DNA of 64,000 bases from Rhodocyclaceae bacterium (GTDB lineage Bacteria; Pseudomonadota; Gammaproteobacteria; Burkholderiales; Rhodocyclaceae), in assembly GCA_030681195.1 (NCBI GenBank), contig JAUXXJ010000047.1:19643-83642 (forward strand). The letters are read 5' to 3'. Below are positions 1,068 to 62,100 of this stretch, piece after piece. The translations under genes were made by a program, and so were the position numbers. The notes beneath the pieces were generated by a model. That model ran no database searches, was not told the origin of the DNA, and saw only the letters and a list, made by a program, of their open reading frames with translations. Each line of letters starts with the position of its first letter. Within the stretch, counting starts at the first letter, position 1.

Positions 1068-1091
1068 GCCGTCCCACCGGCGCCGATTTTT
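1068..1091 (+). repeat. Dispersed 26-nt motif, degenerate copy 1
   Basis: gccgtcccaccggcgccgattttt, intergenic, 20 nt after the cheA stop. Confidence 0.6.
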
Positions 1092-1109
1092 CATGTTCCA
1101 TGAAAAGCC

Positions 1110-1622
1110 ATGCGCACGAATGCCGGCTTCACGATCGTTGAACTGATCGTCACCATGGTCATCATCGGCATCATGGCGGTGACTGTTGTGCCGCGCTTCA
1201 ACTTGATGAGTGGTTTCAGCGCGAGAGGCTATGCCGATCAGATCGAGTCTTACCTGCGTTTCACACAAAAGTCGGCGCTTGCCTCACGGCGCGTAACGCG
1301 ACTTGAGCTAAGCAACTGCACGCCCGCCAATGGGGCGTGCAACAGCGCACCGGCGTTGTGCGTGGCGGAAAATTACAGTGCCGCTCCTGCCTGCGGCACC
1401 GCATGTCCGGTGTCGGGCTGTAGCGCGGGATGGTGTGCCCTGCGCCTGCCCGGGCAGTTTGCCTCGCCGCAAAGCCGGGTCACCGTCAGTGATGCCACAA
1501 CCGTTTGCTTTGATGCAATGGGGCGGCCCATCAATGGCGGCCTGATGATCAGCGTCGGTGACGAGTCGGGCACGCTGGCCCGCACCGTTACCGTCGAGAA
1601 CGAAACCGGTTATGTGCATTAA
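1110..1622 (+). CDS. Prepilin-type N-terminal methylation domain protein, GspH/FimT-like minor pilin
   Basis: N-terminus MRTNAGFTIVELIVTMVIIGI carries the G|FTxxE prepilin cleavage/methylation motif plus a hydrophobic helix. Confidence 0.8.
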   Translation: MRTNAGFTIVELIVTMVIIGIMAVTVVPRFNLMSGFSARGYADQIESYLRFTQKSALASRRVTRLELSNCTPANGACNSAPALCVAENYSAAPACGTACPVSGCSAGWCALRLPGQFASPQSRVTVSDATTVCFDAMGRPINGGLMISVGDESGTLARTVTVENETGYVH

Positions 1623-3288: not shown

Positions 3289-3293
3289 TGCCA

Positions 3294-3318
3294 TGCCGTG
3301 TCCTCAGCGCCGACTTTT
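3294..3318 (+). repeat. Dispersed 26-nt motif, copy 2
   Basis: tgccgtgtcctcagcgccgactttt, intergenic, just after the MshP-like stop. Confidence 0.85.
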
Positions 3319-3328
3319 GGAATAAGCT

Positions 3329-6241
3329 TTGGCCATGAGACGACTTCTGCATCTGCTGCTGTCCCTGCTGCTCGCTGCACTGGCGGGTCAGGCTGTTGCG
3401 CTTTGTTCGCAATATGCGGGGAATACCTCGGGCCCGGTCAACGGCAAGGTGGTCATCAACGAATATAATTATGCTGCCGACTATATTGAGCTAAAGATCC
3501 TTGACCCCGCTTTCGCCGGCACAGCGGCCATGAACAACATGGTGCTGAGTTTTTACAGGAACGCCACGCCATCCAATTACATCGTCGGCAACTACTACAA
3601 CAATAACAGCGGCGCCTGCGGCAGCAGTTCTGCCTATATCAAGATTCCTATTAGTGGCAGTGTCGGCAATGATTCGGTCGTGGTGTTATGGGAAGACAGC
3701 TCCCTTACCCATGAGGTCGATTTCTTTCGGGTCGGCCAGAACAGCTATCCCAGTTTTCGAAGCTCAAGCTGCTTTGCGGCATCCGAATTTGCCGGTACCT
3801 CCTATACCCATCATCAGTCGGCGTTGACCGGTAGTGCGGCACGCAAGGATATCGCGCGCTCACCAGACGGCACGGGGGTATTTCTTGAAACACCCTACTC
3901 CGGGTCTGATCAGGGCACACCCTGTACGAGCAACGACGGCGTCCTGGCGATCACCAAGAACGTGACCAGCGGTGCCTCGATCGTCTGGCTGGGCGAAAAC
4001 ATCATGTTCCGCATCAGTGTCCGCCCCGATGCGCGTGCGGCCAACCAGACGAATGTGGCCGTCACCGACCAACCGGCAAGCACCGACTTCGGCTATGTCG
4101 GCCATACCGCCTCCACGCAGAGTGCTACCTATGTTCCTGGATCGGGCGACTACGTTTGGAACATTGGCAACTTGAGCGCCGGCAGCACAGCCACTCTCGA
4201 CCTCACGCTGAAGGCGAAGAAAATCGGCACCCTCTCGAATACCGCCACGGTACAGTCGGATGACTTCCCCATTGGTACGGTCGGCCCGGCGGTGGCCACC
4301 ATCAGCGTACTGGGCCCGACCATCAGCGTCACCGCCAATCCGACACTGGTTATCATCAACAGCAATACCACCTTCACGATTACGGTCACCAACCCCTCGG
4401 CCACGCTTACGGCACCGGCTTTCAGTGTTGGTAACGTGCTGACCAGCGGATTGAGCTATGTGTCTCATACGGCGGGAGCGGGCAGCTTCGACAGCGGCAC
4501 TGGGACCTGGTCGCTCACCGGTCTGGCACCCGGCGCGAGCGCCACGCTGACGGTGGTCGCCAAAGTCACGCAAATCGGTACATTCACCGACACAGCCACC
4601 ATCACCATGAATGGTTTTATCGGTGACTCGGCCTCTGCGACAGTGAGCGGCGCCGCACCAGTGGCATTTGATGCTTTTGTTGGCACACCGGGACGCTTGC
4701 CCACGCAGGTGGTGGGTGTGCCATTTGCCGTTGAGGTTGAGTCCTACGATGATAACGGCGCAGCTTCCCCCTATACCGGGAATCTGGCGCTGGCCCTGGA
4801 ATACTGCAGCAATGTTTCGCGACCAGCGGCGGGCAGCATTGCCTGCGGCGGCAGCTGGACGGCGGTTCCCGGTGCGACCGCGACAGCAAGCTTCAGTAAC
4901 GTGTCGCGCGTCAGCACGACGATTCCTGCCATTGGCAATGCCTACGAAATTGTGCGCATCAAACAGACGCCGCCCACCGGCAGCGCCGTGTATGCCATTG
5001 ATTATTTCGCAGTCCGCCCCGCCAGCCTGACGCTGGTGGCGAGCGACGCCAGCGATACGACCGCTGGTACATCCCGTCTATTGACCGCCGGCGGCAGCAA
5101 CTTGCACAAGGCGGGTTGGCCATTCACCCTGACCGCCAGTTCGACGGCCAGCAATTATCCGGGCAGTGTGCTGTTGGTGGCCGCCCCGGTGCTGGGCATT
5201 AATCTTGAGGGCAATATCGCGGCCGTCGGCTGGACAGCCACCAGTGGCGGCATGGTTAGCAGCAATGTGATTTACGACGATGTCGGCAACCTGACCCTGA
5301 CCCTGACCGACCAGCACTATGCCGACATCGATGTTGCCGATTCTTCGACGGCACTGCGTTATGTCACGGGTAGCGCCAACATCGGCCGCTTCGTCCCCGA
5401 CCACCTGACGACGGCGGTTACGCTGCCATGTGCCGGTTTTCACTATGCCGGCCAGCCCTTTACCGTGGTGGTGTCGGCCTATGCCAAGAACCAGACGGGC
5501 ACCAACACCCTGAAGAACTACGATGCTACGGCAGGATTTTCCAAAACCGTCATCCTGAGCAATGCCGGCGATACCAGTAATTTCAGCAACAATACGCTTG
5601 CGGCGGGCAGTTTCACCAGTAATGGTGTTGGGACAGCCACGGCAATCACTTACAGCTTTCCAGTCAAGGAAACCGCCGTAGCGACAGTGACGCTACGAGC
5701 CGTCGATGACGATGCTATCAGCTCGGCCGGGCAGACCGAAGGCACTGTCAGTATCCGCAGTGGCCGTGTGCGGCTAGCCAATGCCTTTGGCAGTGAGTTG
5801 CTGGCGCTGTCGATCCCGGTCTCTCTGGAATACTGGGATGGCATCGAATCGCGCTGGCGGCCGAATACGCTCGATACCTGCACCGCGATTCTCAGCAGCG
5901 ATCTGGCTTTTGCTTTCCCGGCGTCGACAAAGAATCAATTGGTGGCTTGCGAAACGGCCGTTACCAGTGTGAGCGGCACGGCACCCGCCTTCCGCGTCAA
6001 CCTGGCCGCTCCGGGAAGCGGCAACTACGGCTGGACCGATCTCACGCTCAATCTTGCGTTGAGCGCTAGTGGCAATCGCTGTACCAGTGTTGGCGCCAGC
6101 AGTCCTGTTGCCACTACGTCTAACAAGCCATGGCTGCAGTTCAACTGGGCGGGTAGCGGCGCAGCCAATCCGACCGCCCGCGCTGGCTTCGGACTTTACA
6201 ACCAGTCTGTACGAGTCATCGACCGCCGCGAAGTGCGCTGA
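3329..6241 (+). CDS. Large secreted MshQ-like pilus-associated protein/adhesin
   Basis: Signal peptide LLLSLLLAALAGQAVA. Possible lamin-tail-like N-domain (VVINEYNYAADYIELK). Two DUF11-type repeats (approx nt 3944-4619). Long beta-rich Ser/Thr/Ala C-terminal region. Last gene of the minor-pilin cluster, as mshQ is in MSHA operons. Confidence 0.6.
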   Translation: MAMRRLLHLLLSLLLAALAGQAVALCSQYAGNTSGPVNGKVVINEYNYAADYIELKILDPAFAGTAAMNNMVLSFYRNATPSNYIVGNYYNNNSGACGSSSAYIKIPISGSVGNDSVVVLWEDSSLTHEVDFFRVGQNSYPSFRSSSCFAASEFAGTSYTHHQSALTGSAARKDIARSPDGTGVFLETPYSGSDQGTPCTSNDGVLAITKNVTSGASIVWLGENIMFRISVRPDARAANQTNVAVTDQPASTDFGYVGHTASTQSATYVPGSGDYVWNIGNLSAGSTATLDLTLKAKKIGTLSNTATVQSDDFPIGTVGPAVATISVLGPTISVTANPTLVIINSNTTFTITVTNPSATLTAPAFSVGNVLTSGLSYVSHTAGAGSFDSGTGTWSLTGLAPGASATLTVVAKVTQIGTFTDTATITMNGFIGDSASATVSGAAPVAFDAFVGTPGRLPTQVVGVPFAVEVESYDDNGAASPYTGNLALALEYCSNVSRPAAGSIACGGSWTAVPGATATASFSNVSRVSTTIPAIGNAYEIVRIKQTPPTGSAVYAIDYFAVRPASLTLVASDASDTTAGTSRLLTAGGSNLHKAGWPFTLTASSTASNYPGSVLLVAAPVLGINLEGNIAAVGWTATSGGMVSSNVIYDDVGNLTLTLTDQHYADIDVADSSTALRYVTGSANIGRFVPDHLTTAVTLPCAGFHYAGQPFTVVVSAYAKNQTGTNTLKNYDATAGFSKTVILSNAGDTSNFSNNTLAAGSFTSNGVGTATAITYSFPVKETAVATVTLRAVDDDAISSAGQTEGTVSIRSGRVRLANAFGSELLALSIPVSLEYWDGIESRWRPNTLDTCTAILSSDLAFAFPASTKNQLVACETAVTSVSGTAPAFRVNLAAPGSGNYGWTDLTLNLALSASGNRCTSVGASSPVATTSNKPWLQFNWAGSGAANPTARAGFGLYNQSVRVIDRREVR

Positions 6242-6245
6242 GGCG

Positions 6246-6265
6246 AAAAGTCGGCGCCGGGAGGA
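6246..6265 (-). repeat. Dispersed 26-nt motif, copy 3 (5' part diverged)
   Basis: Complement reads tcctcccggcgccgactttt, intergenic, 4 nt after the MshQ-like stop. Confidence 0.75.
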
Positions 6266-6312
6266 TTAACCCCCCCAATTCCCGTTTATTCCCCGGTTCC
6301 TTCCCGACCCTA

Positions 6313-9628: not shown

Positions 9629-11125
9629 ATGACGGTAAAACGCTTCTTCGGAGAAAGCGCCCGCGATGCGTTGCGCAAGGTGAAGGCGGCGCTTGGCCCA
9701 GAGGCCATCGTGATTTCCAATAAGCCCGTGCAAGGCGGCGTGGAGATCATGGCGATGTCGGCGGATAGCCTCGAAGCCTTGCAGGGCGCAGATCCGGCAG
9801 CGGCCAAGCCGGTAGCTGCCCGACAGGCAACGGGGAAACCGACTGCCGTCCCGCCAGCGCCGACTATGACGGACGATGAAAGCGACTATGCCGTGTCGCT
9901 CTCCGCCAAGGCACGCGCCCCAACGCCATTCCAGTCCTGGCAACCGTGGCAGCCTCCGCAGGCAGGTAGTGCCGCCAAGCCAGTTGCTGCCACCGAGCGC
10001 ACCGAGCGTCCGCGCCCGCGCCCCTTGCCGCCCAAGCAACAGAGTGCCGCGCCTGCTGTGTCTGCCAATCCGGCACGGCGTGAACCCCAGGGCTTCGGCA
10101 CCAGCTTTGATCCGTCTGCCTTCATGGAACCCGGCATGCTGGCGACGCCCGACAGCAACCCGCAAGTCCAGCAACTCATGTCGGAGATGCAGTCGATCAA
10201 GTCGATGCTGGAACGCCAGCTGGCCGGCTTTGCCTGGAACGACATGACGCGCCACGCCCCCACCAAGGCCCAGTTGCTCGGCGAAATGCTTGAATCCGGC
10301 TTCTCCGGCGTGCTGACACGCCGCCTGGTCGAGGACATGCCAGAAGACCTCGACCTGCAAGCGGGCCGCAAGTGGCTGGCGAGTGCCGTCAATCGCCGCC
10401 TGCGTACGCTAACGCGCGAGAATGATCTGATCGAGCGCGGCGGGGTCTTCGCACTGGTCGGACCGACTGGTGTGGGCAAGACCACGACGACGGCCAAGCT
10501 GGCGGCACGCTGTGTCGTCCGCTATGGCGCTGAAAAGCTTGCCCTGCTGACGACCGATGGTTATCGGATTGGCGCGCATGAACAACTGCGCATCTATGGG
10601 CGCATCCTGGGTGTGCCGGTGCATGTGGTGCGCGACAGTGAAGACTTGCGCCGCACGCTGGCTGATCTGCGTGGCAAGCACATGGTGCTGATCGATACGG
10701 TGGGCATGAGCCAGCGCGACCGTATGGTCGCCGAGCAGGCGGCAATGCTGATGCGCGCGGGCGATGTGCGTCGCCTGCTGCTGCTGAATGCCACCAGCCG
10801 TGGCGATACGCTCGATGATGTGATCCGCAGTTATGCGGGTGAAGACATTGCCGGCTGTATCCTGACTAAAGTGGACGAAACCGCATCGCTGGCCCCTGCT
10901 GTCGATGCCGTCGTGCGCCATGGTCTGCTGATGGCCTATGTGGCGAACGGTCAGCGCGTGCCGGAAGACCTGCATCTCCCCAATCGCAATTATCTGTTGC
11001 ATCGCGCCTTCAAGCAGCCGAGCGCCAATTCGGCGCATCACCTCAAGCAGGACGAAGTCGGTCTGGTGATGCCGTCGAGTCAGGCGGCCAGCCAATTGAG
11101 TCCGCAAGGCGTGGCGCTTGCCTGA
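9629..11125 (+). CDS. flhF: Flagellar biosynthesis GTPase FlhF (SRP-type)
   Basis: Pro/Ala-rich B-domain followed by NG domain with LVGPTGVGKTTT, DTVGMS and TKVDE motifs. Confidence 0.93.
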   Translation: MTVKRFFGESARDALRKVKAALGPEAIVISNKPVQGGVEIMAMSADSLEALQGADPAAAKPVAARQATGKPTAVPPAPTMTDDESDYAVSLSAKARAPTPFQSWQPWQPPQAGSAAKPVAATERTERPRPRPLPPKQQSAAPAVSANPARREPQGFGTSFDPSAFMEPGMLATPDSNPQVQQLMSEMQSIKSMLERQLAGFAWNDMTRHAPTKAQLLGEMLESGFSGVLTRRLVEDMPEDLDLQAGRKWLASAVNRRLRTLTRENDLIERGGVFALVGPTGVGKTTTTAKLAARCVVRYGAEKLALLTTDGYRIGAHEQLRIYGRILGVPVHVVRDSEDLRRTLADLRGKHMVLIDTVGMSQRDRMVAEQAAMLMRAGDVRRLLLLNATSRGDTLDDVIRSYAGEDIAGCILTKVDETASLAPAVDAVVRHGLLMAYVANGQRVPEDLHLPNRNYLLHRAFKQPSANSAHHLKQDEVGLVMPSSQAASQLSPQGVALA

Positions 11126-14360: not shown

Positions 14361-14660
14361 TCAGGCAGTGGGCTTGGCGCGGCCAAGCATGTCGCGCACG
14401 CTGGCCAGCAGGCCATCGGCAATCCGCTCGGGGTTGATCTGGAAGCGGCCCTCGGAAATGGCCTGCTTGATTTCGGTCACGCGCGCTGAATTCATTGCCG
14501 TATCGCCAGCGCCGACTTCTTGCATACGGGCCGATAGCGATGAAATATCCACACGCTCACTTGAGCCGGCATCCGCCTTTTGGGCTGGTGCCTGTGGGCT
14601 GCGGGTGCGGCTGGGCTCGGGCGTGCTGCCGACACTGGGAACTGCGCTATTGATCTTCAC
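14361..14660 (-). CDS. flgM: Anti-sigma28 factor FlgM
   Basis: 99 aa. Conserved C-terminal segment (RVTEIKQAISEGRFQINPERIADGLL). GTG start with AGGA ribosome-binding site. Confidence 0.88.
   Translation of the reverse strand: MKINSAVPSVGSTPEPSRTRSPQAPAQKADAGSSERVDISSLSARMQEVGAGDTAMNSARVTEIKQAISEGRFQINPERIADGLLASVRDMLGRAKPTA
14497..14522 (+). repeat. Dispersed 26-nt motif, copy 4
   Basis: tgccgtatcgccagcgccgacttctt, inside flgM (antisense, read as QEVGAGDTA). Confidence 0.8.
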
Positions 14661-18643: not shown

Positions 18644-18669
18644 AAAAAGTCGGCGCTCACGGGACGGCA
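18644..18669 (-). repeat. Dispersed 26-nt motif, copy 5
   Basis: Complement reads tgccgtcccgtgagcgccgacttttt, intergenic, 2 nt after the flgE stop. Confidence 0.85.
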
Positions 18670-20928: not shown

Positions 20929-22035
20929 ATGAACGCTGTGCATAAATTCCTGATTGGCCTGATGTGGCTGTTTGCCGCCCTGATGGTGAGCGATGCGGCC
21001 CGTGCCGAACGCATCAAGGAAATCGCCTCGATTGCCGGCGTGCGCAGCAACCAGCTGGTCGGCTACGGCATTGTGGTGGGGCTGGATGGCACCGGCGAGA
21101 ACATGCCTTTCACGACGCAAAGCATGGTGAATATGCTCTCGCGCATGGGGGTTTCCCTGCCGCCCGGGCAGACGATGCAGTTCAAGAATGCCGCTGCGGT
21201 GATGGTGACGGCCGACCTGCCGCCGTTTGCACGCTCAGGCCAGCCGCTGGATGTGACGGTATCCTCAATCGGCAGCGCCAAGTCCTTGCGCGGTGGCACG
21301 TTGATCATGACGCCGCTCAAGGGCGCGGATGGCAATGTCTATGCGATGGCGCAAGGCAATCTCGTGGTCAGCGGTGCGGGCGCCTCGGCGGCCGGTTCGA
21401 AGGCGACGGTGAATCATCTGGCGGTGGGGCGGATTGCCAATGGCGCGACGGTGGAACGCGAAGTGCCGATGAATATCGGCGATGGCGAGATGGCACATTT
21501 TGAGTTGCGACGCACGGACTTTGGTACTGCCCAGCGCGTGGTGGACGCCATCAACAAGGCGATGGGCAAGGGCACGGCCACGGCGATGGATGCGCGTCAG
21601 ATTCAGGTGCGGTTGCCGCAAGACCCGACGCAGCGCGTGGCCTTCTTGGGTGCAGTGGAAAACCTCAATGTCACGCCCATGCAGATGCCGGCCAAGGTGA
21701 TTGTGAATGCGCGAACCGGCTCTGTCGTGATGACGAAGGCCGTGATGCTTGACGAATGCGCGATTGCGCATGGCAACCTGTCTGTTTCGGTCACGGCGGA
21801 TAATCAGGTGGTTCAACCGGGCGCACTGGCGGGGGGGCAGACCGCCGCAGCAACCAATGCCACGATCGACATCAAGCAAGAGGGTGGCGCCTTGATGACC
21901 CTGAAGGCGGGCGCTAACCTGGCCGATGTCGTCAAGGCATTGAACGCCATCGGCGCGAACCCTCAGGATCTCATCGCCATCTTGCAGGCGATGAAAATGG
22001 CGGGCTCGCTGCGTGCCGAGCTGGAAATCATATAA
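20929..22035 (+). CDS. flgI: P-ring protein FlgI
   Basis: Signal peptide followed by RIKEIASIAGVRSNQLVGYGIVVGLDGTGE. Confidence 0.96.
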   Translation: MNAVHKFLIGLMWLFAALMVSDAARAERIKEIASIAGVRSNQLVGYGIVVGLDGTGENMPFTTQSMVNMLSRMGVSLPPGQTMQFKNAAAVMVTADLPPFARSGQPLDVTVSSIGSAKSLRGGTLIMTPLKGADGNVYAMAQGNLVVSGAGASAAGSKATVNHLAVGRIANGATVEREVPMNIGDGEMAHFELRRTDFGTAQRVVDAINKAMGKGTATAMDARQIQVRLPQDPTQRVAFLGAVENLNVTPMQMPAKVIVNARTGSVVMTKAVMLDECAIAHGNLSVSVTADNQVVQPGALAGGQTAAATNATIDIKQEGGALMTLKAGANLADVVKALNAIGANPQDLIAILQAMKMAGSLRAELEII

Positions 22036-26747: not shown

Positions 26748-27284
26748 ATGCCGATCGTGATGCCGTCTCGCCAGCGCCGACTTTTTTCCTCCGCCTTGAT
26801 GGCGTCACTCCTGATCGCTGGTTGTTCAAGTACCCCACAAAATGAAAATGTCCGTGGTGCGAGTAGCCAGGTGACGAATGCGGCGGCGGATGTGGTCGCT
26901 GAAGTTCTTGGCGCGCCACTGATTCCCGATATCCCGGTCGTCATCGGGCCTTCTGTCACATACCCGCTCGAAAAGCTGGTGTATTGGGGCATGTGGGCGG
27001 GTGCTGCTTATCTGATCCTCGACCCGCTATCCCCCAACTGGCAGATTGAAGAGGCGCGTTTTCCCGAGAACCATGTCCGTTTCCAGCTGGCCATGAAGCG
27101 CTATTACACAGGTGGAGCAGGTGAGGCGCGAGTGATCTTCCACCGTCGTGCCAAGGAGTTGATGCGTGCAGGCGGGTTTGGCAGCTACGAGGTGGTCGAG
27201 TATTCGGAAGGGATGGAGTCATCCGTGCTCGGTTCGCAGCGCGTTGCCGAGGGGGTGGTGCGCTTCAAGAAGTCGGCCGGCTGA
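26748..27284 (+). CDS. Putative lipoprotein of unknown function
   Basis: Signal peptide with lipobox (MPSRQRRLFSSALMASLLIAGC). Start is ambiguous (ATG 26748, 26760 or 26799). The charged n-region is encoded by a copy of the dispersed 26-nt motif. Confidence 0.55.
   Translation: MPIVMPSRQRRLFSSALMASLLIAGCSSTPQNENVRGASSQVTNAAADVVAEVLGAPLIPDIPVVIGPSVTYPLEKLVYWGMWAGAAYLILDPLSPNWQIEEARFPENHVRFQLAMKRYYTGGAGEARVIFHRRAKELMRAGGFGSYEVVEYSEGMESSVLGSQRVAEGVVRFKKSAG
26761..26787 (+). repeat. Dispersed 26-nt motif, copy 6
   Basis: tgccgtctcgccagcgccgactttttt, after the flgL stop. Encodes PSRQRRLF at the start of the lipoprotein ORF. Confidence 0.9.
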
Positions 27285-31692: not shown

Positions 31693-32745
31693 TTAAGCGA
31701 ATACATCGACAAGACCACGCCCGACCTTGAGGGCTGAAGTGGCTGAATCGTGATCTGAAGATGCCATGATGGACGACTTTCCAGCAGAAGTCTCAGGATG
31801 AGCAGCGAATTTATCCGGGTTTTTCTCTTGTTGAGCGGAGTGGCGTGCGTTTTCGGCGCCTACCTGCGCCTGCCCGAGTTGGATGCCTGCTTCGGCAAGC
31901 GCTTCACGCAAGCGCGGCAGGGCCGATTCGAGGGCTTCACGAACAACCGGGTTGGCCGAGGCAAACGAAGCGGTCGCCTGATCACCCGAAACCGTCAGGC
32001 TGACTTCCACACGGCCCATTTGCGGTGGGTTCAACACCAGTTCAGCCCGACCTTCAGAGCGATTCGCCATCCAGACGATGCGTTGGCCGACTTCCTGGCC
32101 CCAGCCTGCCGCCCCAACGGGTTGGCTGACGGTCATGGTCGCGGGTGCATTGGATGGGCTGGCGGTGGCAATGACTTGTTGAACAACATTGGACATGTTG
32201 GTCGGTTGGCCGGATTGTTTGTTGCTGTCGATGGCGGCGGTGAGTTTGGCAGCGAATTCACGGCCGCTACCCACCTCATCTTTGCCTTCACCAAGCCCGA
32301 CGCCGATGCCCCGAGAGGTCTTTGCTTGCCCGAGGGGGGGCTCGATTTCGCCTCTCAATCCGGCAAGGGGTTTGTTGCCAAATTCAATGGCATCCTCACC
32401 GGCAGTAATTGCCGGCATAATCGGTGCCGCTTCTGGCGTGAGAGACTGGGCTAGCCCCATGGCTTCCATGAAAGGCAGCAGGGCATCAAGCTCTCCTGCC
32501 GTCTCGCCAGCGCCGACTTTTTGGGTGAGTTCCGTCGCTGCGTCGAGTAAACCTGTCTTGATCCCGGGCGGCGGTTGCTTGCCCATCAGTTGCTGGAACA
32601 GCGCGCCAAACGAGTTCGCTGCAGCCCCCGCGCTGCCCGGATCGGCCGCATCGGTGGATGAAGCGCCTTGCGCACTGCTGCCTTTTGTCTGGGCAATGGC
32701 GGCATTCGCCTGAAGGTTGGCTGGAGTAAAAGTGGTTGCCGTCAT
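31693..32745 (-). CDS. fliK: Hook-length control protein FliK
   Basis: Ala/Gly/Pro-rich N-terminal half and Flg_hook-type C-terminus (AELVLNPPQMGRVEVSLTVSGDQATASF). Start taken at MTATTF; the ORF-track start is 32799. Confidence 0.82.
   Translation of the reverse strand: MTATTFTPANLQANAAIAQTKGSSAQGASSTDAADPGSAGAAANSFGALFQQLMGKQPPPGIKTGLLDAATELTQKVGAGETAGELDALLPFMEAMGLAQSLTPEAAPIMPAITAGEDAIEFGNKPLAGLRGEIEPPLGQAKTSRGIGVGLGEGKDEVGSGREFAAKLTAAIDSNKQSGQPTNMSNVVQQVIATASPSNAPATMTVSQPVGAAGWGQEVGQRIVWMANRSEGRAELVLNPPQMGRVEVSLTVSGDQATASFASANPVVREALESALPRLREALAEAGIQLGQAQVGAENARHSAQQEKNPDKFAAHPETSAGKSSIMASSDHDSATSALKVGRGLVDVFA
32497..32522 (+). repeat. Dispersed 26-nt motif, copy 7
   Basis: tgccgtctcgccagcgccgacttttt, inside fliK (antisense, read as QKVGAGETA). 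Confidence 0.9.
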
Positions 32746-32820
32746 GGAGGCTGTCCTTGCATGAAATGTCCTGCACCACTTACGCAAGGACCATGCCACT
32801 GGCTGTGAGGCAGCGGAAGC

Positions 32821-38104: not shown

Positions 38105-38123
38105 AGCGGCAAAAATTGCCGCT
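38105..38123. promoter_or_regulatory. Palindrome AGCGGCAA-AAA-TTGCCGCT in the fliF/fleS divergent region
   Basis: Perfect 8-bp arms, immediately upstream of the fliF sigma54 element. Confidence 0.45.
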
Positions 38124-38164: not shown

Positions 38165-38190
38165 CGCCGTATCGCCAGCACCGACTTTTT
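38165..38190 (+). repeat. Dispersed 26-nt motif, copy 8
   Basis: cgccgtatcgccagcaccgacttttt, in the fliF/fleS intergenic region. Confidence 0.8.
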
Positions 38191-39131: not shown

Positions 39132-40568
39132 ATGGCCAAAGCGCCCATGAACATTCTGGTGGTGGAAGACGACGAAGCCCTGCGCGATGCCCTGCTGATC
39201 ACGCTCGAAGCGGCCGGGCATCAGGCCACCGGCGCCGATGGCGGCCCGGCGGCACTGGCGATGCTGGATCGGAAAGCCTTTCACATGGTGGTTTCCGATC
39301 TGCGCATGGCGCCGATGGATGGCCTGCAGTTGCTGGGCGAAATTCGTACGAAGAAGCCCGGGCTGCCGGTAATGCTGATGACGGCCTTTGGCGATGTCGA
39401 CAAGGCCGTTGCCGCGATGCGTGGCGGTGCTTGTGACTTCATGCTGAAGCCTTTTGAACCCAAGGCGCTGCTGGATCAGATCGAACGCTATGCCATTCCG
39501 CCGTCGGCCGAAGGCGTGATCGCCGCCGATCCGCGGACGCGCGCAGTGCTGTTGCTGGCCGCCCGGGTGGCGAAGACGGATGCCACGATTATGCTCACCG
39601 GCGAATCGGGTACCGGCAAGGAAGTTTTTGCCCGCTACATCCATGACCAGTCGCTACGCAGCAAGGGGCCATTTGTGGCCATCAACTGCGCGGCGATTCC
39701 CGACAATCTGCTTGAGGCCACGCTGTTTGGCCACGAGAAGGGCGCCTTTACTGGCGCACAGACGGCGCAGCCGGGCAAGTTCGAACAATCCGACAAGGGC
39801 ACCCTGCTGCTCGACGAAATTTCGGAAATGCCGCTGGCCCTGCAAGCCAAACTGCTGCGGGTATTGCAAGAGCGCGAAGTGGAACGCGTTGGTGGCAAGA
39901 AGCCGGTGCCGGTGGATATCCGCGTTGTGGCTACCTCGAACCGCAATATGGCGGGGGAAGTCGCGGCCGGCCGCTTCCGCGAAGACCTTTTTTATCGACT
40001 GAACGTTTTCCCCCTGGAGATTCCCGGCCTGCGCGAACGTCCTAGCGACATCGTCCCGCTTGCCAAGCACTTCCTCGCTATGCACGGCGCACGCCTTGGG
40101 CGGGTGGGACACGTCTCCGCGTCCGCTGCGGCAAAACTTGCCGCCCATGCCTGGCCGGGCAATGTGCGTGAGCTGGAAAACGTCATCCAGCGGGCGCTCA
40201 TCCTCGCGCCCGGCGACAGTATCGAGGCTGAACACCTGCTCCTGCCGGATACTGCGCCCGGCGCGGTAGTGCCTGTGCCAAGCAGTTATGAGCAGCCTGC
40301 CGTACCCCATGCGGGGCATTCCATCCCGCCAGCGCCGACTTTTGCCGCAGCAGCGCCCCAGCCTGCCCCAGCGGGAATCCCGGCGACTCCAGTGGGGCCG
40401 GCCAACATGCGTGATCTGGAGCGCCAGCACATTCTGGATACCCTGGCCAAAGTCGGTGGCTCACGCAAGAAGGCCATTGATTTGCTGGGCATTTCCGAGC
40501 GAACGCTGCGCTATAAACTGGCGCAGTATCGCGAAGAGGGCTACTATAAGACCGACGAGCTTGATTGA
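39132..40568 (+). CDS. fleR: Sigma54-dependent response regulator, FleR/FlrC-like
   Basis: REC domain (VVSDLRMAPMDG), AAA+ sigma54 interaction domain (GESGTGKE, GAFTGA, ...RVGG), Pro/Ala-rich linker, C-terminal Fis-type HTH. Confidence 0.85.
   Translation: MAKAPMNILVVEDDEALRDALLITLEAAGHQATGADGGPAALAMLDRKAFHMVVSDLRMAPMDGLQLLGEIRTKKPGLPVMLMTAFGDVDKAVAAMRGGACDFMLKPFEPKALLDQIERYAIPPSAEGVIAADPRTRAVLLLAARVAKTDATIMLTGESGTGKEVFARYIHDQSLRSKGPFVAINCAAIPDNLLEATLFGHEKGAFTGAQTAQPGKFEQSDKGTLLLDEISEMPLALQAKLLRVLQEREVERVGGKKPVPVDIRVVATSNRNMAGEVAAGRFREDLFYRLNVFPLEIPGLRERPSDIVPLAKHFLAMHGARLGRVGHVSASAAAKLAAHAWPGNVRELENVIQRALILAPGDSIEAEHLLLPDTAPGAVVPVPSSYEQPAVPHAGHSIPPAPTFAAAAPQPAPAGIPATPVGPANMRDLERQHILDTLAKVGGSRKKAIDLLGISERTLRYKLAQYREEGYYKTDELD
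40319..40343 (+). repeat. Dispersed 26-nt motif, copy 9
   Basis: ttccatcccgccagcgccgactttt, inside the fleR linker (read as IPPAPTF). Confidence 0.85.
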
Positions 40569-42679: not shown

Positions 42680-43794
42680 GGGCGGGCAGGTTCTGCTTCA
42701 TGTTTTACTTGCAGGGCAATCAGCGGCACGCCGGCAGCTTCCATCGCCTTGGCCAGTGCCGGCGCTTCATCAAGCAAGTCGGCGGCACTGGCACCATAGG
42801 GCGTGGCCAGTGTGATGCGCATGCCTTGTGCGGTCAGTTGAAGCTTGGCATCGACGCGCCCCAGGCGCGGTGTGGTCAGGGATAACGTGGTACTCCAAAG
42901 GGGTGATTCGTCCTCGCTGCCATCTGTTTCCCGTTCGTTTTCGAGTTCAATCGTCAAGTCCATCGCCTGCTGTGGCCAGACTTCGCCATGCCACGTCATG
43001 CGTTGGGTAGCCAGCGTTTCGAGCTGTTGCTGGACGAGCGGCCGCAGATCATCCGGCACGGGCGATGCGGCTTGCGCAGCCTGGGCAATTTGAGCAGCGG
43101 GTGCCGTCCCACCAGCGCCGACTTTTTCTGCGCCGCCTGCTGGCAGCATGCCCGGCAGCGCGGCGCGGTCTGCCAGGATGCCTGTCCTGGTCGTGCCATC
43201 CGCGCGGGCGTGCTGGCCCTGCGGTTCTTGGAACAGTTGTGCGAGCGGTCGCTGACCATTCACCCACTGTGCCTGATGAGACTCATAAAACAGCCCGCTT
43301 TGAGCCACCGATTTCGCCAGTATGGGGGCCAATTGCGCGGCGGCATTTTGTCCGCTGGGCGGGGCTGGCAGAAGCGGCTCGCCGCGGTTTAGTCGGGCCG
43401 GTACGCTGGCGTTACCTTCGTCAGGGAGCAGGTTACTGATCATGCGGCCGGCCGTGCTGAACCTGGCGAATTCATAGGGGGCGCTGCTGCCGGTCTGCCC
43501 CGTCTCGACCTGCTTGGCCATGATGGTCCTGCCCGCGCGGTCGACCACCACCAGTTCGAGTTCATCTCCCGTCTTTGCACCTTCCGGGAGTTGCAGCGTG
43601 AGCTGCTTGCCGGCAACCAGCGCCTTGTAGGAGTTGTCCGGCAGAACCTCCTGAATGCGTGCCGTGAAAGTCTGCCCCTGGCGTAATTCCGGCAGATCGC
43701 TGCCAATATCGTGCGCCGGACGCACCGGTTGCAACAAGTTGGCATCCGTCTGCATGCGCATACGGATGCCGACATCGGGGGGAATCAGCGCCAT
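42676..43794 (-). CDS. FliK-like protein (second Flg_hook-type C-terminal domain)
   Basis: C-terminus LSLTTPRLGRVDAKLQLTAQGMRITLATP...AMEAAGVPLIALQV parallels the FliK C-terminus at 31693-32745. Translationally coupled to the FlhB paralog. Confidence 0.6.
   Translation of the reverse strand: MALIPPDVGIRMRMQTDANLLQPVRPAHDIGSDLPELRQGQTFTARIQEVLPDNSYKALVAGKQLTLQLPEGAKTGDELELVVVDRAGRTIMAKQVETGQTGSSAPYEFARFSTAGRMISNLLPDEGNASVPARLNRGEPLLPAPPSGQNAAAQLAPILAKSVAQSGLFYESHQAQWVNGQRPLAQLFQEPQGQHARADGTTRTGILADRAALPGMLPAGGAEKVGAGGTAPAAQIAQAAQAASPVPDDLRPLVQQQLETLATQRMTWHGEVWPQQAMDLTIELENERETDGSEDESPLWSTTLSLTTPRLGRVDAKLQLTAQGMRITLATPYGASAADLLDEAPALAKAMEAAGVPLIALQVKHEAEPARP
43102..43127 (+). repeat. Dispersed 26-nt motif, copy 10
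   Basis: tgccgtcccaccagcgccgacttttt, inside the fliK-like gene (antisense, read as EKVGAGGTA). Confidence 0.9.
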
Positions 43795-50083: not shown

Positions 50084-50111
50084 TTATCGACCCCGGTTCA
50101 TCTTTCTTTAG
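50084..50111 (-). promoter_or_regulatory. Candidate sigma28 (FliA) promoter of the downstream flagellin gene (48251-50011)
   Basis: The minus strand reads CTAAAGaaagatgaaccgggGTCGATAAat. This is TAAAG with consensus spacing and one mismatch in GCCGATAA. Confidence 0.6.
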
Positions 50112-50123: not shown

Positions 50124-50148
50124 AAAAGTCGGCGCTGGCGAGACGGCA
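50124..50148 (-). repeat. Dispersed 26-nt motif, copy 11
   Basis: Complement reads tgccgtctcgccagcgccgactttt, between the two flagellin genes. Confidence 0.9.
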
Positions 50149-52167: not shown

Positions 52168-52176
52168 AAGGTGCGA

Positions 52177-55381: not shown

Positions 55382-55520
55382 CCGAGCATCCTAGTGGAGT
55401 CAGGCTGGCGCAACTCATTGAGTAAAGGGATGATCAGCCGCCTTTCGCAGCAATCGTCCGAGGCTCAGTTGCGTCACACTGCGTTGGTCTATCGGTGTCG
55501 ATATCTTCTTTGGGGTTGCC

Positions 55521-56429
55521 ATGGGCTTGTTATGGATTCCCACCGCGGTCGGAGTCCAATTCGTCATGCTGTACACCTTTCTCGGCGGGCCGGGGGGCTT
55601 GCTGGCGCGGGTGTTCGGTCATTCCCTGTTCGTCACGACAGCGGGATGGGAGCGAGTCCATTTCGGCTTGCCGATGGCCTTGGTGCTGGCCTTTCCTTCC
55701 CTGATGGTGCTGGCGATAATCGAAAAATGGCTGCATCCTGTTGGATTGCTTGACATTGCCGTCGTCCAAGGCGTGGGCCTTGTCATGATCCTGGCGTGGC
55801 TCAAGCACCATCGCGTCCCCAAGCGCATCGCCACTGTGGGCGAGGCAGAAGGTTTGGCGATACCTTCGCCCTGCCCGGTGAGTGATGTTTTGGCCGTTCC
55901 GCCAGCGCCGACTTTTTTTACTAGGCTTGAGCCACCCGTTCAGATGGCCCTGCCCCAACCGGCGGTGGTCGCGGTTTCTCCGAACGAATGTTTGCTGAGA
56001 TGGTTAAACCGGCGCTATCAATGGGATTGCATCGGTTCTGCGCGTACATTTGAGGAACTGCGTCAAGCGCCGCCCGCCGCACAATTGATGCCGCACCATC
56101 TCGCTTTCTGGGGCGCGCAGCGCTACGCGAGTCTGCGTGGTGTGCTTGAGGCCAGTCTGACGGCGCTGCGGGCCAACAAGGGTGTGCCTGAATTGCAGTC
56201 ATCGGCTGAAGATTTCTTTCCCGATGAGGAAGACTACCTGGATGACGTCCTGCGCCGCTTGGTGTGTTCGGTGTATTTCTCGCATGAACCGTTATTCCTC
56301 GACCAAAATGATCTCGAATTGTGCGGCATGGAGAATGTGCGCATCATGTATCGCCTGGCACTGTGGGCGGTGCGGAACGGACCAGAGAATCTGCCGTTGC
56401 CGCAGGCGCACGCGCAGCAACTGCATTGA
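55521..56429 (+). CDS. Hypothetical membrane protein (three predicted TM segments plus a soluble C-domain)
   Basis: The only long ORF in the roughly 960-bp gap between the T1SS ABC and TolC genes, and on the opposite strand. Its 3' end overlaps the tolC-like ORF end by about 86 nt. No recognisable motifs. Confidence 0.4.
   Translation: MGLLWIPTAVGVQFVMLYTFLGGPGGLLARVFGHSLFVTTAGWERVHFGLPMALVLAFPSLMVLAIIEKWLHPVGLLDIAVVQGVGLVMILAWLKHHRVPKRIATVGEAEGLAIPSPCPVSDVLAVPPAPTFFTRLEPPVQMALPQPAVVAVSPNECLLRWLNRRYQWDCIGSARTFEELRQAPPAAQLMPHHLAFWGAQRYASLRGVLEASLTALRANKGVPELQSSAEDFFPDEEDYLDDVLRRLVCSVYFSHEPLFLDQNDLELCGMENVRIMYRLALWAVRNGPENLPLPQAHAQQLH
55892..55919 (+). repeat. Dispersed 26-nt motif, copy 12
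   Basis: ggccgttccgccagcgccgacttttttt, inside the 302-aa hypothetical ORF (read as VPPAPTFF). Confidence 0.9.
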
Positions 56430-57822: not shown

Positions 57823-57880
57823 GTCCCGGTAGACACGCAAAAATCGCACCAGACTAGCGGCAGCTATTTTGCCGTGAGGT

Positions 57881-59137
57881 TTAGCCGCGCTTTTTCAGCA
57901 CGAATTCAATACTGCATTCCGCCATCGGCGTGCGCGTCTGGTCGACGCCGCGCGGCAGGGTGGCCGCGCGGTAGCCCTGGTCGATCAGCTGGAGTGACAG
58001 GATTTCTACCTGCGCGCGGAATTCGCCAAGCAGGTCGAGCAGGTTGACCGATACCGGCGACCATGAGGAAGGCTTGGCGATGGTGAAGCTGATCTTGTGG
58101 TCGCTATTGAAGCGGCTTGGCCACTGGCCCTGTTCGTAGAGGTCCTCGTCCGGTACAGCGATGACAAGATGGCCACCGGGTTTGACCACGCGCAGCCAGT
58201 TGGCCAGCGCGTCGCGTGCGTCGCGCATGTGTTCGAGGCAATGCGAGGAATAGAGGAAGTCAAAGCTGTCGTCGAGGATGTTGGCCAGCGTTTGCGCGTC
58301 GCCGTGCGGTTGGTCATAGACGAAAATGTTGCGCGCCAGCGGAAAAAACTCCTTGTAGAGCGACAGTGAATCGATACCACCGCCTACATCGATACCATTG
58401 CCCTTGAAGTAGCGGGTGGCGAAGCGGCTGTCGGCCAGGCGGCGCTGCATCGAGATGGCGGTCACGCCCGGCACCACGTCCGCGCGGTATTGCAGGGGGC
58501 CGGAAGCATCTTGCGGGCGGATGTTGATCCAGGTTTTGCGGTCGAGCGCAACGGTTTTCGGCGCAAGGATCAGGTAACCCTCGTCGTCTCGCAGCAGGTA
58601 GGAAGCATGGGTTTCTTTCAGCCGCTCGATGCGTGCCATGAGGGCGGGCTTTTCGTTCCAGCGGCGGGCGAATTCGGGACATTCGCCATTTTGGAACGCG
58701 CCATCGAAATACATGCGCACGTCGTCCATGACAATCACGCTGCGCGAGAGGTCGCCAGCCAGCAGGATGTCGAACTCCTCGATCAGCGGAAAGCTGCCGG
58801 GGTCGCGTGCCGACTCGACATAAGTAGTTAGCCCAAAATCGGCGCCACCGAGAAAATGCGCGTCGAGGAAGTAAAAGCTTGCCGTCCCGCCAGCGCCGAC
58901 TTTTTGCAGAAACGCCTTGCTTTCCCCCTGTTCCAGATGCACCTGCGGAAACGCGGCAAAGCGCTTCTGGCAGGCTTGGTAAAGCGGTTCGGCCAGTTCG
59001 ACGGAATGCAGCTCCGGGAAACCGCAGCGTACCGCCCAGGCGAGCGAATCGCCGCGACCGGTGCCGGTTTCGATCAGGCGCTCAAGCCTGAATGTTTCGC
59101 GCAAGTGGCGCAGGTTAAAGCGCAGCAGACTGCCCAT
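57881..59137 (-). CDS. Two-domain class I SAM-dependent methyltransferase
   Basis: N-domain has motif I-like IETGTGRGDS. C-domain has IDVGGG ... FDFLYSSHCLEHM ... VKPGGHLVIAVP (Methyltransf_11/23-like). Confidence 0.7.
   Translation of the reverse strand: MGSLLRFNLRHLRETFRLERLIETGTGRGDSLAWAVRCGFPELHSVELAEPLYQACQKRFAAFPQVHLEQGESKAFLQKVGAGGTASFYFLDAHFLGGADFGLTTYVESARDPGSFPLIEEFDILLAGDLSRSVIVMDDVRMYFDGAFQNGECPEFARRWNEKPALMARIERLKETHASYLLRDDEGYLILAPKTVALDRKTWINIRPQDASGPLQYRADVVPGVTAISMQRRLADSRFATRYFKGNGIDVGGGIDSLSLYKEFFPLARNIFVYDQPHGDAQTLANILDDSFDFLYSSHCLEHMRDARDALANWLRVVKPGGHLVIAVPDEDLYEQGQWPSRFNSDHKISFTIAKPSSWSPVSVNLLDLLGEFRAQVEILSLQLIDQGYRAATLPRGVDQTRTPMAECSIEFVLKKRG
58880..58905 (+). repeat. 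Dispersed 26-nt motif, copy 13
   Basis: tgccgtcccgccagcgccgacttttt, inside the methyltransferase gene (antisense, read as QKVGAGGTA). Confidence 0.9.
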
Positions 59138-59141
59138 GATG

Positions 59142-62100
59142 TCATTTTCCTTTCTTCTTCTTGGCGGCGGCGCGCAAATCCTTTGCCAGGCGCACCAGCG
59201 GCGCCGACCAGTCCTTGCGCTTGTCTTGACGGTACAAGGTCAGGGTCGGATACCAGGGGGAGTCTGCCCGATCCCACAGCCAGCGCCAGTCCGGAAGACG
59301 GGGCAAAAGTACCCGTGTTTTCACGCCAAGCGCGCCGGCCAGATGCGCCACCGAGGTATCCACGGTCAGCAGTTCGTCCAGTTCGCCGAGAATCGCGGCG
59401 GTATCCTCGAAATCCACAATTTCCGGGTCGAGATTGAGCAATCTTGTCTTTGACGACAAGGTGGCTATCTGGCTGACGGGCTCGCCCTTTTGCACCGAGA
59501 CGAAATCGAAACGTGGGTCGGACAGCAGAGCGGTGAATTGTTCGAGCACGATTGAGCGATTGGCGTCGTTGCCGTGTGTCGGCCGGCCGGCCCAGACAAT
59601 GCCGACGCGATAGTTTTTCAAGTCGGCCAGGCGCGCGTGCCAGTGCGCCTGCTTTTCCGGCAGGGCTTGCAGATAGGGCACCGCAGCGGGAATGCTGGCT
59701 AGCCTGGTGTTCAAGGCACGCGGCAAGCTCAAGAGCGGGCAGTGCAGGTCGCAGGCCGGCAGCGACTCGCCGCCTTTGACCAGGAACGTCACCCCGGGAA
59801 TGCGCGCCGCGAAACTTTCCAGGCTGGGCTGGACGACCAGCACCACCTCGGCACCGCGCGCCGCAACCAGCGGGATGTAGCGCAAAAACTGAAATGTGTC
59901 GCCAAAACCCTGCTCGGCATGAATCAGGATGCGCTTGCCCGCAATATCCTCGCCCAGCCATTGTGGGCGGTTGAAGTGGCGCACTTCCTTGCAATCCGGT
60001 TGCAGCCAGCGGCATTCGTAATGCCCCCAGCCAGCGTCCAGATCGCCCAGCATTAATTCGAGCAGCGATTCATGCAACTGCGCGCGCACATGCTGTGGGT
60101 CGATGGCCAGCGCCTGCCGAAATGCCGCCAGTGCGCCGGGAAAATCCTCGATTTCGCGCAGTACCACACCGAGGTTGTACTGGTACTCGGCCATCGTCGG
60201 TGCCAGGCTGACGGCACGGCGTGCCGCAGCAATGGCTTCCTCCCAGCGACCGAGAGCCCCCAGCGTGTTACCGAGATTCGATTGTGCGCCAGCATTGTTT
60301 GGGTCAATCTGTACCGCACGCTGCTGGTGAATGACCGCCTCATCCAGCCGGCCCAGCGCCTTGAGGAAGGCGCCCAGATTCGACCAATTGGCCGGGTCGC
60401 CAGCGTTAAAGCGTGCCGCCCGAGCTCCGAACAGCGCGGCCGGATAGTGCTGCTGGTCGCGCCAGGCGCCCACGGCCAGCAAATTCCAGGCATGGGCATG
60501 AAACGGGTGTTGCCGCAAGCCAGCCCAGGCGAGGGTTGTGGCCGTGTCCGCTTCGCTACGTTCCAGCGCTGTTCTGGTTTGCTCAAACAAAAAGTCGGCG
60601 CTGGCGGGACGGCGCTCGCTGCCGGGGATGAGGTCGTCCAGCGCGGTATGTGCCGCGCTGACCACGCCGGCCCAATCGCCGGGGCGGATCTGGCGAAACA
60701 GCCTAAGACTTGGGTACCACGGGCTGTCGTCGCGCGCCAGACGCCAGCGCCAGTCGGGCATGTAGGGCAGCAGTAACCAGGTCGGCACACCCAGCGCACC
60801 TGCCAGGTGGGCGACCGAGGTGTCGACGCACACGAGCAGATCCATCTGCGTCAATGCGGCGGCGGTGTCGGCGAAGTCCTTGAGATGGGGCGCGAGGTCG
60901 ATGATCTGTTGCCCCAGACCGAGGGCCGCAATATCGGCCGCCCTTGCACCGAACTGCAGTGAAAAGAACGTGCAGTTGGCGGCATTCAGCAAGGGCTGCA
61001 GGGCGGCCAGCGGCATTGAACGATTGGCGTCGTTGCTGTGCGCCGGGTTGCCCGCCCACACCAACGCGATACGCAGGCGTGTGACATGCGTGCTCATGCG
61101 CTGCTGCCAGGCAAGGGTGCGTTCGGTGCCGACCTCCAGGTAGGGCACCGGTGCCGGCACGCTCAGGCGGTCGATGCCCAGCACATGCGGTAGCGAGAGC
61201 AGGGGACAGACCGCCTCCACCTTGGGCATGACGGCGCCCGTGGTGACGACCGTTATCTGGGGATGCTTGGGAATGAGTGTTTCCAGCCCGCTCTGCACGG
61301 CGAAGACAATCCGGCCTTCCGGACCAATGCGTGTTGCTACCTGGGGCAGGTAACGGAGGAATTGCACGCTGTCGCCGGCACCCTGCTCGGAATGAAGGAA
61401 CAGCGTTTTGCCCGGCAACACCTCGCCGCGCCAGAGTGGATGGGTTTCCGCCATGCGCCGGCCGGGAAAGCCCAGTACGTCGAAGCGGTGCTCATAGTCG
61501 GCAAAGCCGCCCGTCAGGTCACCGGCCAGCAGACGCGCCAGGCCACGGTTGTAGATTACCGCCGGATAGTCTGGCTGGAGCGCCAGCCCGTGATCAAAGC
61601 AGTCGATGGCCTCGGCCGGGCAGTGACGTTCGGACCAGATGCGCGCCAGCAATCCCCAGGCATCCGCCTTGACGGTGGGTGTCGCTTCCCGGGCGAGCGT
61701 GGCGTGAAACTCGGCCTCGGCAGCGGCGGGGTGACCCAGTTCCAGCAGCGTTTTGCCCAGCATCAGGCGGTAGCCGGCATGGGCCGGCTGCAGGCGCACG
61801 GCGCTGGCGTAGTGGGTTAGTGCCTCGGCGTAGCGCCTGCGATCGAACAGCAGGTTGCCCAGGTTGCCGTGTGCGCCGTCGTTGTCCGGTTCGATTGCCA
61901 GGCTGCGTTGGTAGGCGGTAATCGCTTCATCGCTACGGCCCAGCGTCTTGAGGGCGACGCCCCGGTTGGCATGGCCGCGCGCCACACCGGGCTCCAGCGC
62001 AACCAGCCGGTCGAAACAGTCCACCGCCTCCTCGCCACGCCCGGCGCGTTGCAGCAGGACGCCGAGGTTATTCCAGGCATCGGCAAAACCGGGGTCGTGT

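Follow-up and report, generated by a model that had tools for sequence, protein, structure and literature searches.

A 64,000-nt stretch of a Rhodocyclaceae genome (assembly GCA_030681195.1, contig JAUXXJ010000047.1, positions 19,643 to 83,642; hereafter the window), which covers a flagellar, MSHA-pilus and type I secretion region, carries dispersed copies of an asymmetric 25-nt motif, YGCCGT-NN-CGCCAGCGCCGACTTTT. The motif is a clade-wide word of Sulfuritalea, Sulfurisoma, Rugosibacter and related Rhodocyclaceae/Sterolibacteriaceae, and is limited to this clade. We observed directly that it is over-represented, clade-specific, without strand polarity, preferentially placed, formed by substitution, maintained over long times and present in phages. 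The best explanation, to which we give about an even chance, would be an uptake or self-recognition signal held by molecular drive. The transformation machinery would have a DNA receptor at the cell surface, probably a component of a type IV pilus, that binds double-stranded DNA bearing the word in either orientation, and word-bearing fragments would consequently be taken up and recombined more often. Such an uptake bias would create copies by point substitution where the sequence is free to vary, and the same drive would then keep each copy near the consensus. We rate this explanation best partly because biased uptake combined with homologous recombination is the simplest known force able to create hundreds of locally functionless copies and to hold them at the consensus; biased uptake as that force, natural competence of these bacteria and the receptor itself are what we infer.

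A 25-nt word common to one clade

The conserved unit was defined by a sequence logo of 225 copies, which gave 25 nt with two free positions in the middle, not the 26 nt of a preliminary description of the window. Its edges were sharp, the information being at background by −14 and +12, one base beyond each end. A position weight matrix (PWM) made from the same number of copies was used to scan the window in bits, giving 15 copies at ≥27 bits and 2 weak ones at 13–15 bits (Table 1), compared to 0–0.25 in shuffled sequences, with no score between 8 and 13 bits. When GCGCCGACTTTT was searched with up to one mismatch, 17 matches (12 exact) were found where dinucleotide shuffles predict 0.53, and the 26-mer of the preliminary description with up to three mismatches gave 12 matches against 0 expected. 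All 14 copies listed in that description exist, with coordinates right within 1 nt, but two strong copies, 1267–1291 (−) and 9844–9868 (+), and the weak one at 21471 (−) had been overlooked, and the match at 6246 (−), though present, is merely the 3′ half of the motif. The spacing of the copies in the window was more even than random (coefficient of variation 0.55 vs 0.94, P = 0.011).

The motif behaves as two modules. In comparison with locus L119, the sigma54-activator copy of the window (40292–40343) has a TGCCGT hexamer 21 nt upstream of the 3′ 19-mer, and the copy upstream of fliF in L119 and L121 is broken by a 12–14-nt insertion at the same hexamer/19-mer junction. No stable fold or hairpin was found for six copies on both strands (DNA folding z-scores of 0 to +2), the window gave zero Rfam matches at the gathering threshold, and among 364 copies there was neither a target-site duplication (TSD) nor a flanking or terminal inverted repeat (TIR). 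The flanks of the copies were unrelated to each other, so that unrelated flanks and the lack of inverted repeats and TSDs, as initially described, were all upheld. Readings as a hairpin, a terminator or a repetitive extragenic palindrome (REP) were ruled out by the fold z-scores, and those as a longer element or a miniature inverted-repeat transposable element (MITE) by the logo edges and the lack of TSD and TIR. The motif is not a CRISPR either.

For its distribution, species-representative genomes were scanned for the exact 17-mer CGCCAGCGCCGACTTTT, with 8-kb blocks returned. At least 117 genome blocks, from at least about 63 assemblies, contained the 17-mer. The matches listed mostly carried Sulfuritalea, Sulfurisoma, Rugosibacter, Methyloversatilis, Propionivibrio, Rhodocyclaceae, Sterolibacteriaceae or Betaproteobacteria labels, with a few broader or other proteobacterial ones, and they included the cultured Sulfurisoma sediminicola BSN1 (L027). 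Three of the matches listed were from other phyla (Acidobacteriota, Pirellulales and Prosthecobacter); these look like chance matches, since all three lack the unascertained 5′ half. The genomes differed in a 'dialect' at position 1, with T for the window organism and mostly C elsewhere.

An unascertained sample was obtained from metagenome loci picked through their FliF protein and not through the motif. Loci with FliF at least 70% identical had about one copy per 3–5 kb (for instance, 6 in 21.6 kb of L122, 8 in 21.4 kb of L125 and 4 in 21.7 kb of L154), while those with FliF at most 63% identical, a few hundred kb in all, had zero, and k-mer counts revealed no alternative over-represented word in these outgroup loci. 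In 244 kb of unascertained clade DNA we counted 65 copies with up to five mismatches over the 23 specified positions (about 1 per 3.8 kb; 0.5 expected). Their mismatch spectrum shows a very strong consensus (11, 14, 21, 10, 5 and 4 copies with 0 to 5 mismatches, respectively). Genome blocks ascertained on one copy had 0.105 further copies per kb, and the overall density was thus about one copy per 4–10 kb (1 per 3.8–9.5 kb). In contigs picked through methyltransferase homologs, copies were present in L295 and L297 and absent from L294 (15.5 kb), L298 (9.6 kb) and L299 (15.7 kb). The latter three, together with L165 (7.2 kb) and L123 (4.9 kb), encode proteins as similar to those of the window as motif bearers do, yet have zero copies or a decayed one only. 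Such relatives indicate that the motif is present or absent at the level of the organism and patchily distributed, or that it was lost in some lineages.

Gain, maintenance and placement of the copies

Copies at orthologous sites were often common to lineages whose FliF is just 70–78% identical. In 237 ingroup ortholog pairs, compared with motif presence conditioned on the query alone, identity reached 76% both in the motif and in distal flanks and fell to 57% in the adjacent ±40 nt, whereas against outgroups the motif columns were 55% and their neighbours 56% identical. Since the motif columns are conserved above their neighbours in the ingroup and not in comparison with outgroups, individual copies are actively maintained, inside the clade only. 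For instance, the copy in the linker of the sigma54 activator (FleR) was kept in about 10 of 12 lineages while the rest of the linker was unalignable, and its GCG, CCG and CCA were unchanged at four-fold degenerate positions. Turnover was observed as well: L122, L124/L127, L125 and L154 had lineage-specific copies, and the site upstream of fliF held decayed copies in L122, L123 and L124.

Gains were evaluated by the gap test as used on the uptake signal sequence (USS) of Pasteurellaceae (PMC1626085), in which the length change at the site is determined relative to motif-free orthologs. This test gave five clean gains with zero length change. The gain at L124/L127 2321 was compared to 13–17 orthologs, which hold a graded precursor (tCGCCGtCACGCCcAGgCtGAC...), and those at L004 3109 and L102 5459 were each compared to an 80%-identical ortholog, again with zero length change. 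The motif loop of the methyltransferase, 9–10 residues, was equal to or shorter than that in 27 motif-free homologs, and the linker of the TPR protein had the same length in motif-free L294.

On the other hand, some presence/absence differences, a minority and located in hypervariable DNA, matched in-frame length changes of 24–27 nt (L042 3990, L122 13286 and L127 11854), and one hypervariable site carried the motif in opposite orientations depending on the lineage (L127 11854, +; L120 11853 and L122 18634, −). Both observations can be read either way, so that a copying mechanism survives as a minority rival, in which a selfish micro-repeat with no host function would multiply by insertion of a unit of about 24–27 nt or by converting, from a template, sites that already resemble it in part. 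Elements that propagate by copying typically show a very strong consensus with sharp edges (PMC1626085), and the motif has both; its occurrence in phages of differing base composition would also fit. A micro-repeat is nevertheless hard to reconcile with the lack of TSD and flanking inverted repeat in all 364 copies and of any hairpin, with the gains of unchanged length, at least five in number and one of them with its precursors still visible, and with old copies that do not decay like their neutral surroundings. Besides, 59% of copies are located in open reading frames (ORFs) although a 25-nt unit is not divisible by three, and a transposase or RAYT-like partner is not evident. We regard a selfish micro-repeat as improbable.

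Placement was strongly biased. Non-coding DNA and gene edges held 41% of the copies vs 14% of the DNA, a three-fold enrichment (p = 4e-26). About one third of the intergenic copies were located within 25 nt past a stop codon, with equal numbers in the two orientations (16:16), and short operon spacers consisted mostly of the motif. The copies inside ORFs were sense in 85 cases and antisense in 68, and their numbers by reading frame were 50, 47, 23, 16, 15 and 2. The two dominant frames were antisense phase 2, encoding KVGAGGTA (50 copies), and sense phase 2, encoding AVPPAPTF (47 copies), Arg-rich frames being rarer (2–23 copies each); the motif is free of stop codons in all six frames. Coding copies sat in hypervariable loops. 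Those of the window were in the FlhF N-terminal region, FlgM and two FliK-like proteins, in linkers of the sigma54 activator, the TPR protein and a membrane protein, and in a loop of the methyltransferase.

The flagellar/MSHA setting of the window, the several copies beside gene starts or stops and the positional conservation of the fliF-upstream and FleR-linker copies could point to a local operator of a flagellar or pilus regulon, or to a conserved peptide motif. Against this, the copies occur in unrelated gene contexts in at least about 63 assemblies, pointing with or against transcription and read in five to six frames that give differing peptides. Intergenic DNA is enriched in them, synonymous positions are conserved, and copies are also found in phage methyltransferase and PAPS-reductase genes. 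A regulon operator or peptide motif is thus effectively refuted, and we leave it only a very slim chance.

Strand polarity was evaluated on 259 strong copies from other loci, 132 of them plus-strand and 127 minus-strand copies. Set against the sign of the local GC skew, they split 138:121 (p = 0.32), and in blocks with |skew| above 0.04 the split was 47:45. The skew was positive in 29 of 31 four-kb segments of the 64-kb stretch, and its sign is therefore a reliable guide to the replication strand here. The excess of plus-strand copies in the window, initially given as 10:4 and recounted as 11:4, was not significant and was gone in the larger sample; it is a matter of chance plus shared ancestry of the copies. 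The octamer GCTGGCGG in the complement, pointed out earlier as one mismatch from the Escherichia coli Chi site, showed no strand skew either (11:9 in the window). The absence of polarity indicates that the motif is not of the Chi or KOPS (FtsK-orienting polar sequence) type; both candidates were rejected on this ground, with GCTGGCGG and GCTGGTGG unskewed.

The preliminary description had proposed an uptake signal and named three results that would speak against it. As shown above, the motif is not confined to the locus, being present in the many genome blocks and in unascertained orthologous loci; no larger mobile element surrounds it, the edges being sharp and TSD and TIR lacking; and it has no strand polarity. 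The uptake proposal therefore came through these checks, while the accompanying resemblances to Chi and to the DNA uptake sequence (DUS) of Neisseriaceae were not supported.

Copies in phages and comparison with known signals

The exact 17-mer was also found in at least 120 IMG/VR contigs, and 111 of the matches listed bore the full 25-nt motif. Three contigs were checked and were bona fide phages, with RecT/RecE, DNA methyltransferases, PAPS reductase, primase-helicase and terminase. Phage contigs had 0.040 further copies per kb, about 40% of the value obtained likewise for genome blocks, which makes the density lower in mobile DNA. A blastn search of a 30-mer against INPHARED (cultured phages) and PLSDB (plasmids) gave chance-level partial matches only (E ≥0.1). 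One recurrent placement was in phage DNA methyltransferases of the phrog_67 family, which had a common C-terminal tail, ...KVGAG(E/D)TAVQGDMLLPAN*, the motif supplying its first eight residues (IMG/VR contigs L178, L196, L222, L230, L231, L239, L260, L269, L284 and L288), and a phage PAPS-reductase-like gene held another copy, WWQKVGAGETAAKA.

Some phage contigs of just 46–53% G+C carried near-perfect copies, again located at gene ends and in the KVGAGxTA / AVPPAPTF frames. Slow point-mutation drive explains such copies poorly, and they hint that selection acts on them directly in phages or that recombination spreads them. A benefit to phages, which these copies suggest, would suit a word that is read inside the cell, namely a genome-wide 'self' tag for a DNA-processing or chromosome-organising protein (for example in nuclease attenuation, or in the loading of recombination or condensation factors), which phages would copy to pass as self. 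Further points in favor of such a tag are the even spacing in the window, the long upkeep of single copies, by which each copy matters or is driven, and the Chi-like octamer in the complement. The lack of orientation bias relative to GC skew, with GCTGGCGG unskewed outside the motif as well, excludes polarity-dependent tags of the Chi and KOPS types. Moreover, the known nucleoid, Chi and KOPS signals include none that is 25 nt long and non-palindromic, and ordinary selection in the host would have several hundred sites to keep up one by one, which is harder than drive. We consider a self tag of this kind unlikely, although it is the strongest of the rivals. A categorically new 25-bp identity tag, read inside the cell by sequence-specific machinery, for instance non-polar nuclease control or a repair/conversion system that would also write or restore the word, with phages as mimics, appears distinctly unlikely.

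An uptake signal, our preferred reading, was compared to the known ones. Sequence-specific DNA uptake is known in two families only, Neisseriaceae and Pasteurellaceae, both host-associated (bioRxiv 10.1101/2025.06.16.659825). Their DUS and USS are both highly over-represented, unbiased in orientation and spaced more evenly than random. Both favour non-coding DNA, though many copies are coding, in preferred frames and where residues are poorly conserved; both originate by substitution, have an anomalously strong consensus and are depleted in recently acquired genes (PMC1626085, PMC2817400). Every one of these properties is reproduced by the motif.

The USS of Pasteurellaceae is the Hin-type AAGTGCGGT, flanked by two AT-rich segments that bring it to about 29 bp. 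Like it, the motif is non-palindromic and hugely over-represented, occurs unpolarised in both orientations, and is family-wide with minor dialects. The two also have in common the enrichment in non-coding DNA, the frequent use of preferred frames at poorly conserved residues in ORFs, the substitution origin and the anomalously strong consensus, as well as a modular extended structure of a core and flanking segments that ends in a T-run. The sequences, however, are unrelated, and the GCGG inner core of the USS is not in an equivalent position. The motif has about 23 strongly specified positions instead of a 9-nt core with weak flanks, and occurs about once per 4–10 kb, whereas the USS occurs about once per 1.2 kb. 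Its hosts form an environmental betaproteobacterial clade without known competence.

The DUS of Neisseriaceae comprises AT-GCCGTCTGAA and seven other dialects, with the minor pilin ComP as the receptor. All eight dialects contain a 5′-CTG-3′ inner core at +6 to +8 of GCCGTCTGAA, which is required for transformation (PMC3630211). The host class, Betaproteobacteria, the population-genomic signature and the existence of position-1 dialect differences are the same for DUS and the motif, and the 5′ module of the latter has the hexamer GCCGTC in common with DUS. In contrast, C-Y-C replaces the CTG core, the length is 25 nt compared to 10–12 nt, the density is lower, and dyad-symmetric terminator pairs are absent. 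Since the essential core is C-Y-C, the motif is not a DUS dialect, a candidate that we rejected on the bases at the aligned positions (C/A/G with C at 53%, C/T, and C at 88%). The likeness of ATGCCGTCT to the Neisseria DUS, to which the preliminary description drew attention, accordingly does not reflect functional homology, and the leading A was present in only 2 of the 15 copies.

Other classes of repeated words were compared with the motif as well. Chi (RecBCD/AddAB) and KOPS (FtsK) resemble it as short over-represented chromosomal 'self' words from which phages can profit, and GCTGGCGG differs from Chi by a single mismatch; they are, however, 5–8 nt long and strongly co-oriented with replication, unlike an unpolarised word of 25 nt. 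REP and bacterial interspersed mosaic elements (BIME), MITEs and Rickettsia palindromic elements (RPEs) have a high copy number and a strong consensus, and RPEs occur occasionally in frame within ORFs. The motif differs from all of these in having no palindrome or hairpin, TIR or TSD and a length of just 25 nt; most of its well-resolved gains took place without insertion, and its copies are maintained rather than decaying. The cyanobacterial HIP1 (GCGATCGC) is likewise a phylum- or clade-wide hyper-abundant word of debated function that is kept at orthologous sites in coding and non-coding DNA, but it is an 8-bp palindrome tied to methyltransferases, unlike a 25-nt asymmetric word.

Several points weigh against an uptake signal, in addition to the near-perfect copies in phages of lower G+C content and the 24–27-nt in-frame length changes described above. 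With 25 positions specified or nearly so, about 23 of them strongly, the word is two to three times longer than the 9–12-nt USS/DUS cores, and the density is 4–10 times below the value of about 1 per kb for USS/DUS. Closely spaced inverted pairs, which would be terminator-like, were found neither in the window nor at other loci, where neighbours were at least 120–200 nt apart. The literature searched gave no report of natural competence or sequence-biased uptake in the clade. Finally, there are genes for three prepilin-type minor pilins in the window, including a Cys-rich one of the GspH/FimT type, but the three matched solved pilins in the N-terminal helix only, and no ComP-, ComN- or FimT-like receptor was identified among them. 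Minor pilins broadly of this GspH/FimT type include the known (ComP) and predicted (ComN/PpdA) receptors of uptake sequences. The GspH/FimT-type minor pilin of the window (1110–1622, +), located in an MSHA-like cluster, has eight cysteines, with one motif copy before and one inside its gene. As a receptor candidate it is a lead, not evidence.

In the literature searched, the motif string appeared in no relevant context, and uptake sequences were not linked to Rhodocyclaceae or Sulfuritalea. The motif may represent a third, independent and unusually long uptake sequence, for which no earlier description was found there.

Copies in the window, neighbouring features and implications

The copies in the window are summarized in Table 1. 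The weak match within flgI may be a decayed copy, a nascent copy or a chance match.

Table 1. Matches to the 25-nt motif in the window; bits are PWM scores
Position	Strand	Bits	Match	Context
1067..1091	+	29.5	copy CGCCGTCCCACCGGCGCCGATTTTT	intergenic, 19 nt past cheA-like stop, upstream of minor-pilin gene
1267..1291	−	28.0	copy, degenerate 5′ half	antisense within GspH-type minor-pilin ORF 1110–1622
3294..3318	+	32.7	copy	takes most of 40-nt operon spacer, 6 nt past stop, 11 nt before MshQ-like (DUF6701) gene
6246..6270	−	13.1	3′ half alone, exact GCGCCGACTTTT	5 nt past stop of gene 3329–6241
9844..9868	+	27.4	copy without T-run	sense, variable FlhF N-terminal region, encodes TAVPPAPTM
14496..14520	+	34.6	copy	antisense in flgM, encodes QEVGAGDTA
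18645..18669	−	33.7	copy	takes 25 of 35 nt between flgE stop and flgF start
21471..21495	−	14.9	weak degenerate match	within flgI
26761..26785	+	41.9	near-consensus copy	16 nt past flgL stop; codons 1–9 (MPSRQRRLF) of lipoprotein ORF
32497..32521	+	41.9	near-consensus copy	antisense in FliK, encodes QKVGAGETA
38165..38189	+	36.4	copy	divergent fliF/sensor-kinase intergenic region
40319..40343	+	35.6	copy	disordered linker of sigma54 activator, encodes SIPPAPTF
43102..43126	+	38.8	copy	antisense in second FliK-like gene, encodes EKVGAGGTA
50124..50148	−	41.9	near-consensus copy	between two flagellin genes, downstream of terminator-like hairpin, upstream of sigma28-type promoter
55892..55916	+	36.4	copy	sense, hypervariable linker of membrane-protein ORF 55521–56429, encodes AVPPAPTF
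58880..58904	+	41.8	copy	antisense in SAM methyltransferase, encodes loop QKVGAGGTA
60590..60614	−	42.5	consensus copy	sense, inter-domain linker of TPR/glycosyltransferase protein, encodes RRPASADFL

Two placements needed revision. The copy at 55892 is not intergenic but lies in the linker of an ORF, and the one at 26761, which does follow the flgL stop codon, also opens a lipoprotein ORF with the same 25 nt. The position of the latter was kept in L122, L125 and L127, and that of the 38165 copy in most relatives whose FliF is ≥70% identical, being decayed in some. The 55892 copy was missing from the orthologous proteins of L294 and L295, whose linkers run longer. Orthologs of the 58880 and 60590 copies were both found in L295 and L297, and at the latter site L294 has a segment of equal length without the motif.

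Some features near the copies were observed in addition. A perfect palindrome, GCGGCAATTTTTGCCGC, is located just upstream of fliF (38106–38122) and was kept in all FliF-anchored relatives, including the motif-free outgroups; a one-mismatch copy of it lies inside the sigma54-activator gene (40128–40144). A dimeric flagellar regulator probably uses it as its operator. A sigma28-type promoter, TAAAG-N14-GTCGATAA (50084–50110, −), lies between the motif copy and the downstream flagellin gene (48251–50011). The two FliK-like (PF02120) hook-length control genes (31693–32799, − and 42676–43794, −) each have the antisense motif in the variable N-terminal part. At 52177–63999, a type I secretion set (HlyD-like, ABC and TolC-like) adjoins the SAM methyltransferase, the TPR/glycosyltransferase protein and a large ORF, a neighbourhood that recurs in L294, L295 and L297. 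The DNA of the large ORF looks like RTX-type GG-x-G-x-D repeats. Several relatives have the methyltransferase as a fusion with a second, TylF-type methyltransferase domain.

In practice, the 25-mer is a near-diagnostic tag for metagenome binning of the clade and could help to link phages to their hosts. The uptake hypothesis is directly testable, because the cultured S. sediminicola BSN1 carries copies, and adding the motif to DNA might render hard-to-manipulate members of the clade transformable. If the motif is not an uptake signal, a 25-bp word kept at hundreds of sites and copied by phages would still need a new explanation. If it is, a much longer and information-richer signal would be available for dissecting receptor specificity, and the motif would indicate that gene flow in environmental communities meets a barrier at the clade level. 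Self-biased transformation would then not be peculiar to mucosal pathogens but would extend to a clade of free-living, sulfur-oxidising and denitrifying Betaproteobacteria.

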